A stretch of DNA of 32,000 nucleotides, taken from assembly GCA_048886185.1 (NCBI GenBank), contig JBHLKY010000014.1:60001-92000 (forward strand), read 5' to 3'. Shown piece after piece: positions 28,862 to 28,964 of this stretch. The translations under genes and the position numbers were made by a program. The stretch is from Candidatus Hermodarchaeota archaeon (lineage in GTDB: Archaea > Asgardarchaeota > Heimdallarchaeia > Hodarchaeales > Hodarchaeaceae). Every line of letters begins with the position of its first letter. Positions within the stretch are counted from its first letter, which is position 1. The notes below the pieces were generated by a model. The model did not search any database. It was not told the DNA's origin and saw only the letters and a program-made list of their open reading frames with translations.

Positions 28862-28964
28862 AATTATAAGTCAGAAAGTGCAACTATCGTCATTAGTTTA
28901 TAGGAACAGGATGAACTGATCCTTAAACTTCAGGAGACCGTCTTACTCATCATAGGGGATAATT
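28862..28964 (-). ncRNA. Candidate double-guide box C/D sRNA
   Basis: Minus strand reads AUGAUGA (C, 28953-28947)-GUAAGACGGUCUC-CUGA (D', 28933-28930)-36-nt hairpin (AGUUUA/UAAACU, AGGA/UCCU)-AUGACGA (C', 28893-28887)-UAGUUGCACUUU-CUGA (D, 28874-28871). All four boxes are near-perfect and the guides are 13 and 12 nt. Confidence 0.8.

Follow-up and report, generated by a model that had tools for sequence, protein, structure and literature searches.

A conserved box C/D sRNA of Hodarchaeales predicted to guide 2'-O-methylation at two sites of 23S rRNA

Introduction

The canonical archaeal C/D sRNA, with its K-loop, is reportedly that of Nolivos et al. 2005. The K-loop C/D sRNAs of Pyrococcus and Pyrobaculum (PMC6009581) are about 50 nt long, carry consensus boxes and two symmetric guides of the 12-nt class, leave only a few unpaired bases between boxes D' and C', and depend on L7Ae, Nop5 and fibrillarin. 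The archaeal sites of methylation are concentrated in hotspots that include helices 35/35a and helices 90-93 of 23S rRNA (PMC4644070, PMC7994747).

Several described RNAs address positions in these regions. In Ignicoccus hospitalis, a hyperthermophilic crenarchaeon, the short sRNA sR27 (PMC4644070) has few bases between D' and C' and a D' guide that reads AACGACGGUCUC and is followed by CUGA; its predicted target is C2864 of 23S rRNA in the numbering of a pan-archaeal alignment (Dennis et al. 2015, PMC4644070), and the predicted target of its other guide is G2322. Because C2880 of that alignment is E. coli C2606, C2864 corresponds to E. coli position 2590. A second sRNA, sR30, pairs C2880 with C2864 (PMC4644070). 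Ignicoccus sR77 and other helix 35 guides (PMC4644070) are directed at the loop of that 23S hairpin, which in those species reads UGACGUGCAAA. In yeast, snR73 guides Cm2959 of 25S rRNA (PMC5699541), and yeast C2959 is probably the equivalent of E. coli 2590, given an offset of 369 deduced from the correspondence of Um2921/Gm2922 to U2552/G2553.

Description of C/D guide RNAs from Asgard archaea was not found in the literature searched. Hodarchaeales, an Asgard order, have been proposed as the archaea nearest to eukaryotes. Here we describe an element upstream of rio2 in a 32,000-nt stretch of a Hodarchaeales metagenome-assembled genome (MAG; GCA_048886185.1, contig JBHLKY010000014.1, positions 60,001 to 92,000), hereafter the window, and compare it with its homologs and with the RNAs above.

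Results

Anatomy of the element

Analysis of the window revealed four boxes, two guides and a hairpin on the minus strand between 28871 and 28953, with the boxes in the order C-D'-C'-D (Table 1). A sequence-only reading of this stretch had proposed a C/D sRNA with four near-consensus boxes, and both the anatomy and the conservation of the element in 22 of 22 genus genomes bear this out. As expected of an archaeal box C/D sRNA, a box C of the form RUGAUGA lies near the 5' end and a CUGA box D near the 3' end, and the two guide spacers are of the ~12-nt size. The span from box C to box D, ~83 nt, is above the 50-70 nt expected of this class, the 35-nt insert that separates D' from C' accounting for the excess. 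The second base of box D' is degenerate among homologs, which is usual for an internal D'.

A strict pattern for the full architecture gave two matches in the 4.84-Mb host genome (35% G+C) and none in a reversed-sequence control. No ORF of at least 40 codons was found over the element. A search of Rfam families returned none at threshold, the best being sR3 with 16.4 bits (cut-off 41), while snoPyro_CD scored 12.4 bits against a cut-off of 45. On the comparative evidence given below, the element is a conserved dual-guide box C/D sRNA of Hodarchaeales (Asgard), which adds a further example to an already known RNA class and does not overturn current understanding of it.

Table 1. Coordinates of the element and of neighbouring features in the window
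Feature	Position	Strand	Remarks
A-rich block aligned with GAUAAWA of homologs	28979..28988	-	sole conserved block upstream of box C (alignment A3)
Box C, AUGAUGA	28947..28953	-	98.8% column identity, 23 distinct homologs
D' guide, 13 nt	28934..28946	-	positions 2-9 are GACGGUCU; core 100% conserved
Box D', CUGA	28930..28933	-	CCGA, CGGA or CAGA in homologs; C and GA invariant
Internal stem-loop, 35 nt	28895..28929	-	6-bp outer stem, 7-bp inner stem, 6-nt loop
Box C', AUGACGA	28887..28893	-	UGA and GA invariant; 95.7% identity
D guide, 12 nt	28875..28886	-	positions 2-11 are AGUUGCACUU; core 100% conserved
Box D, CUGA	28871..28874	-	invariant across all homologs
rio2	27923..28843	-	Pfam RIO1, E 5.7e-43; Rio2_N, E 9.5e-21

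Conservation across the genus

Homologs were collected by BLAST from ten congeneric genomes, and Rio2 loci supplied four more distinct sequences. A covariance model, which the sequence-only reading had suggested, was built from 15 sequences (model R1, alignment A1) and recovered the element in 22 of the 22 genus genomes with E-values from 1e-12 to 1e-25, as a single copy in each except G006, which has two. Among 61 other genomes of the class, R1 found no convincing copy and one weak match, in G023 (E 1e-3); considered as a homolog outside the genus, this match was judged spurious, as it lies inside a 125-codon ORF.

Conservation is unevenly distributed along the element. Over 23 distinct sequences, column identity was 98.8% and 95.7% in boxes C and C' and complete in both guide cores, compared with 63% in the hairpin and 72-76% in the flanks. 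The invariant stretch is exactly positions 2-11 of the D guide and positions 2-9 of the D' guide, counted from the box. Of the boxes, whose conservation had been left to be checked along with the complementarity of the guides to rRNA, C, C' and D are thus nearly invariant, and both guides match rRNA, as described below.

The internal hairpin and the C'/D' motif

The long stem-loop that had been seen to close the C'/D' motif is supported by covariation over its 35 nt. In alignment A1, compensatory changes occur at 10 of the 13 pairs, and the covariation score was reached in none of 500 shuffles. Of the cells, 84% are paired, a share that falls to 23-55% if the partners are displaced by 1-3 columns; RNAalifold recovers the identical helix. 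Insert length ranges from 13 to 37 nt across the genus with the outer stem kept throughout, and two genus members carry a 61-nt version of the element.

The hairpin starts one base past the A of box D' and stops 3 nt short of the GA of box C'. The resulting 3-nt bulge, 28894-28892 (AAU), comprises A28894 and the first two bases of box C', and is accompanied by two tandem G-A pairs and an invariant G-C pair (G77:C31). This placement matches a K-turn that has a stem I, indicating that the internal C'/D' motif is a true K-turn and not a K-loop.

The earlier description of this arrangement as more snoRNA-like appears weak, given that internal K-turns have been recognised in archaeal guides (PMC8413462) and that loop 9 of the genome's L7Ae, NLGVKTAS, is of the archaeal type, with the V and A at positions linked to K-loop binding (PMC8413462). 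Among archaeal guides, an internal K-turn closed by a stem is uncommon, but it is no new design. We also considered that the stem might be required because L7Ae is Snu13-like, and rejected this explanation on the basis of the archaeal-type loop 9 and the presence of short K-loop sRNAs in the same genome.

Other C/D sRNA candidates were noted in the host genome. A second box C/D sRNA, on the minus strand of contig C19 (88040-88125), has D' and C' separated by a 22-nt hairpin of 9 bp. The core of its D' guide, GGUUUUACCG, finds a match in 16S rRNA near position 563, and in ten genus genomes both of its guide cores are invariant and its hairpin covaries. A canonical 55-nt candidate with consensus boxes and a D'-C' gap of 8-9 nt lies on the minus strand of contig C8 (169205-169324), and the occurrence of this K-loop-type candidate beside the stem-closed sRNAs suggests that the genome has both designs. 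A scan for half-guides of the form UGAUGA-12 nt-CAGA gave 14 matches compared with 3 in the control, including candidates on contigs C6 (plus strand, 97833) and C9 (minus strand, scan position 177708) that match 23S rRNA at the GUGAGACAG and CCUCGAUGU regions; these two may lie inside genes.

The D' guide and C2590

The MAG's own 16S and 23S rRNA genes are absent from the assembly, and target assignments were therefore made on congeneric rRNA, using 16S from G016, the 5' part of 23S from G016, G008 and contig C38 of G001, and the 3' part of 23S from G005. On these sequences both guides show what is expected of an archaeal C/D sRNA, namely complementarity to a target with the site of modification opposite the fifth base of the guide. 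In a search for tRNA targets among the 32 tRNAs found by ARAGORN, neither guide was matched convincingly. A tRNA within the window itself, at 21586-21712 on the minus strand, was detected by Rfam as a match spread over 127 nt (50.5 bits), while ARAGORN at its defaults reported no tRNA in the window; this tRNA probably contains an intron.

The D' guide core pairs with AGACCGUC at 23S positions 2587-2594, placing guide position 5 (G28938) opposite the C2590 equivalent by the +5 rule. The sequence-only reading had proposed eight contiguous pairs with conserved 23S rRNA and this same +5 position, and both points hold, the numbering having been verified on E. coli 23S rRNA, in which 2587-2596 reads AGAACGUCGU. 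It further named the site as yeast Cm2959, guided by snR73; the pairing of snR73 with Cm2959 agrees with PMC5699541, and the equivalence of Cm2959 to C2590 is probable from the numbering.

The statistical strength of the D' match differs between the window's copy and its homologs. In the window, position 10 of the guide is an A opposite G2595, so that eight contiguous pairs plus one are formed; the resulting 9/10 match is unique in the genus rRNA and was equalled by 107 of 1000 shuffles. In five homologs, position 10 is a C, giving 10/10 Watson-Crick pairing with AGACCGUCGU, which was reached by 6 of 1000 shuffles, and in one genome it is a U, which would form a G-U pair. This C/U variation is the pattern expected from an rRNA target. 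We propose that the target of the D' guide is the 5' strand of helix 93 of 23S rRNA (2587-2596), where the C2590 equivalent is predicted to become 2'-O-methyl-C.

The D guide and the loop of helix 35

The D core, AGUUGCACUU, has a single perfect 10/10 match, AAGUGCAACU, in the loop of helix 35 of the 23S rRNA of G016, G008 and G001. The runner-up site reaches 7/10, the match is unique within the ~4.9 kb of genus 16S and 23S rRNA, and 5 of 1000 shuffled guides reach 10/10. Position 5 of the D guide (A28879) pairs with a U that is aligned to E. coli U747, which stands opposite the U of GUGCAA in the published pan-archaeal alignment. The stem flanking the loop covaries between G016 (ACG-GCU/GGC-CGU) and G008 (GGA-GCU/GGC-UCC). 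The D guide is predicted to cover the whole helix 35 loop and to specify 2'-O-methyl-U at the U747-aligned position.

This assignment replaces the one made from the letters of the window, which had placed the D guide at 2564-2573 with methylation at the 2568 equivalent. When that interval was inspected in the congeneric 23S rRNA, it read AAAAGGGAAC, a match of only 7/10 to the guide, with three internal mismatches that include the +5 position, whereas the helix 35 loop matches at 10/10.

Other families of Heimdallarchaeia have differing helix 35 loops, ACGUGCAAUU and AUAUGCAAUU, and a guide pattern allowing for these loops gave zero matches in 61 genomes. Since the loops differ and no correspondingly altered guide was found elsewhere, both the D guide and its target appear to be confined to the genus.

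Two observations concern the rRNA genes used for comparison. One full-length 23S gene assigned to the genus (L001, G001:C57:307-3242) was left out of the target search, as it lacks both target sequences and deviates at conserved positions; it reads GAGAUGGGUUUACACC, with a differing helix 35 loop, while contig C38 of the same MAG carries a genus-type 23S, and C57 is probably a foreign contig in G001. At another locus (L049, G008:C9:1695-3919), 1,478 model positions of the 16S gene are spread over 2,225 nt, and the genus 23S genes match in several pieces, which suggests that the rRNA genes of the genus are interrupted by introns or large insertions.

The rio2 neighbourhood and the ends of the element

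The start codon of rio2 lies 27 nt past box D in the window, and the rio2 frame begins 17-32 nt after box D at every homologous locus. A GGG block, which may be a ribosome-binding site, often stands between box D and the rio2 start in homologs, and many homologs also show an A/T-rich block after box D. The neighbouring genes are all on the same strand, with a gene for an ABC-type ATPase upstream and one for a DUF460 protein after rio2. The stop region of rio2 overlaps the GTG start of the 734-codon DUF460 gene by 4 nt (27923-27926), which suggests an operon.

In the 5' flank, the block at 28979..28988 is possibly a TATA-like promoter element; in close relatives its GAUAAWA counterpart lies ~29 nt upstream of box C. 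The sRNA probably either forms the leader of the rio2 transcript or has its own promoter, abutting that of rio2. A further hairpin proposed just 5' of box C (28980-28955) does fold in this genome, but it has no consensus pair across 11 homologs and is not conserved. Within it, UCCC before box C (28955-28958, minus strand) is kept in nearly all homologs and has no conserved pairing partner. Pairing of UCCC with the GGG block before the rio2 start codon was considered and set aside, as it is not universal and the GGG block is absent in the window.

At the terminal C/D motif, no pairing between the 5' and 3' flanks that would form stem I is possible in the window or in any homolog, the bases concerned being the one 3 nt ahead of the GA of box C and the one that follows box D; in stem II the tandem G-A, U-U and G-C pairs can form. 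Circularisation, which many archaeal sRNAs undergo, could take the place of a terminal stem here. L7Ae is said to need stem I for binding at the terminal motif (PMC7994747).

Discussion

Comparison of the element with described guide RNAs shows a combination of familiar and divergent features. It shares with canonical K-loop sRNAs the box consensus, 12-nt-class guides and two-guide symmetry, together with the presumed dependence on L7Ae, Nop5 and fibrillarin, and differs from them in its ~83-nt length, its 35-nt covarying hairpin and its lack of a terminal stem. The D' guide of sR27 is reproduced exactly in five homologs and is one base off in the window's copy; sR27 differs in being short, in the target of its other guide and in its host. 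The likeness to yeast snR73 and its vertebrate counterpart is limited to a shared target position, by numbering. Because the C2590 site is guided in Crenarchaeota too, it is not an Asgard-eukaryote speciality.

The helix 35 loop is likewise a recurrent target, and bacteria carry base modifications in it. By the +5 rule, sR77 is directed at an A that lies three bases upstream of the U chosen here, and the Hodarchaeales loop, CAAGUGCAACU, and its matching guide look specific to the genus. Both predicted targets of the element fall within the published hotspots, helices 35/35a and 90-93.

Genes for all three core proteins are present in the host, with fibrillarin (E 3e-78) and Nop5 (E 4e-66) on contig C8 (59474-61007) and L7Ae (E 5e-26) on contig C3 (9149-9397); the L7Ae also matched solved L7Ae structures (E 1e-37). 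In the mechanism that we propose, the terminal C/D and internal C'/D' motifs would both be bound by L7Ae, after which a Nop5-fibrillarin dimer would assemble on them; each guide would then place fibrillarin at the nucleotide of the rRNA that faces the fifth base of the guide, counted upstream from D' or D. The 35-nt hairpin would supply a canonical stem I directed away from the guides, and the geometry of the particle need not change. The function that we favour, with a probability of about 0.88, is that an L7Ae-Nop5-fibrillarin particle is guided to 2'-O-methylate the equivalents of C2590 and U747; transcription, RNP assembly and both methylations are predictions from sequence comparison.

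The position of the element beside rio2 across the genus, 17-32 nt before the start codon and often with a GGG block between, would also suit a cis-acting leader of the rio2 mRNA, whose two K-turn motifs would bind L7Ae or the sRNP some 20-30 nt ahead of the start codon and tune Rio2 translation or mRNA stability, guiding being secondary or absent. L7Ae on K-turns of mRNA leaders has been proposed from RIP-seq, at least as outlined in PMC5539422, as a form of archaeal translational control. A pure protein-binding leader, however, needs no two invariant 10-nt stretches that match rRNA at 10/10 in +5 register, one of them common to a free-standing Ignicoccus sRNA, and we consider this explanation quite improbable, noting that leader and guide roles are not mutually exclusive. 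The rRNA matches themselves could instead serve a folding chaperone that pairs at the same time with domain II, in the loop of helix 35, and with domain V, in helix 93, with methylation dispensable. The two targets, ~1,800 nt apart in sequence, lie side by side once the tunnel and peptidyl-transferase region are mature, and the contact between A752 (in the helix 35 loop) and U2609 in E. coli counts in favour of such a role. According to Dennis et al. (PMC4644070), the regions that hold both targets abound in tertiary contacts linking domains II and V. The data do not separate chaperoning from methylation, but the exact +5 register on a site that is methylated in yeast and predicted in Ignicoccus points to methylation as the selected output, making a chaperone for which methylation is dispensable very improbable.

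That the boxes are short, that the genome is only 35% G+C and that no Rfam family matched at threshold might be taken to indicate a chance set of box-like motifs in an AT-rich spacer, devoid of RNA function. This possibility is barely credible given the presence of the element in 22 of 22 genomes, where invariant boxes and guides stand beside a diverging, covarying hairpin, and given the absence of matches in the reversed-sequence control. In sum, the leader, chaperone and chance explanations are all much less likely than guided methylation.

Two further possibilities can be envisaged, although we regard them as doubtful: that the guide RNA doubles as the rio2 leader and, separately, that the stem-closed K-turns reflect drift of the lineage toward a snoRNA-like D'-C' region. 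In the first, RNP assembly on the nascent transcript may decide between a large-subunit guide RNA and a translatable Rio2 message and, if true, the leader arrangement would couple methylation of the large subunit with Rio2, a kinase of small-subunit maturation. At least two conserved sRNAs of this lineage have stem-closed K-turns, which could represent a lineage-specific drift from the compact K-loop toward the longer, structured D'-C' regions of eukaryotic snoRNAs.

Guided methylation, the reading that we prefer, provides two concrete predictions of rRNA methylation for the Hodarchaeales lineage near the peptidyl-transferase centre of large-subunit rRNA, one at the C2590 site common to yeast and Crenarchaeota and the other in the helix 35 loop. 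The element further indicates that a long, evolving hairpin can stand in for the internal K-loop while the guide is retained, and it presents a guide RNA that is tied to a ribosome-biogenesis gene throughout a genus.
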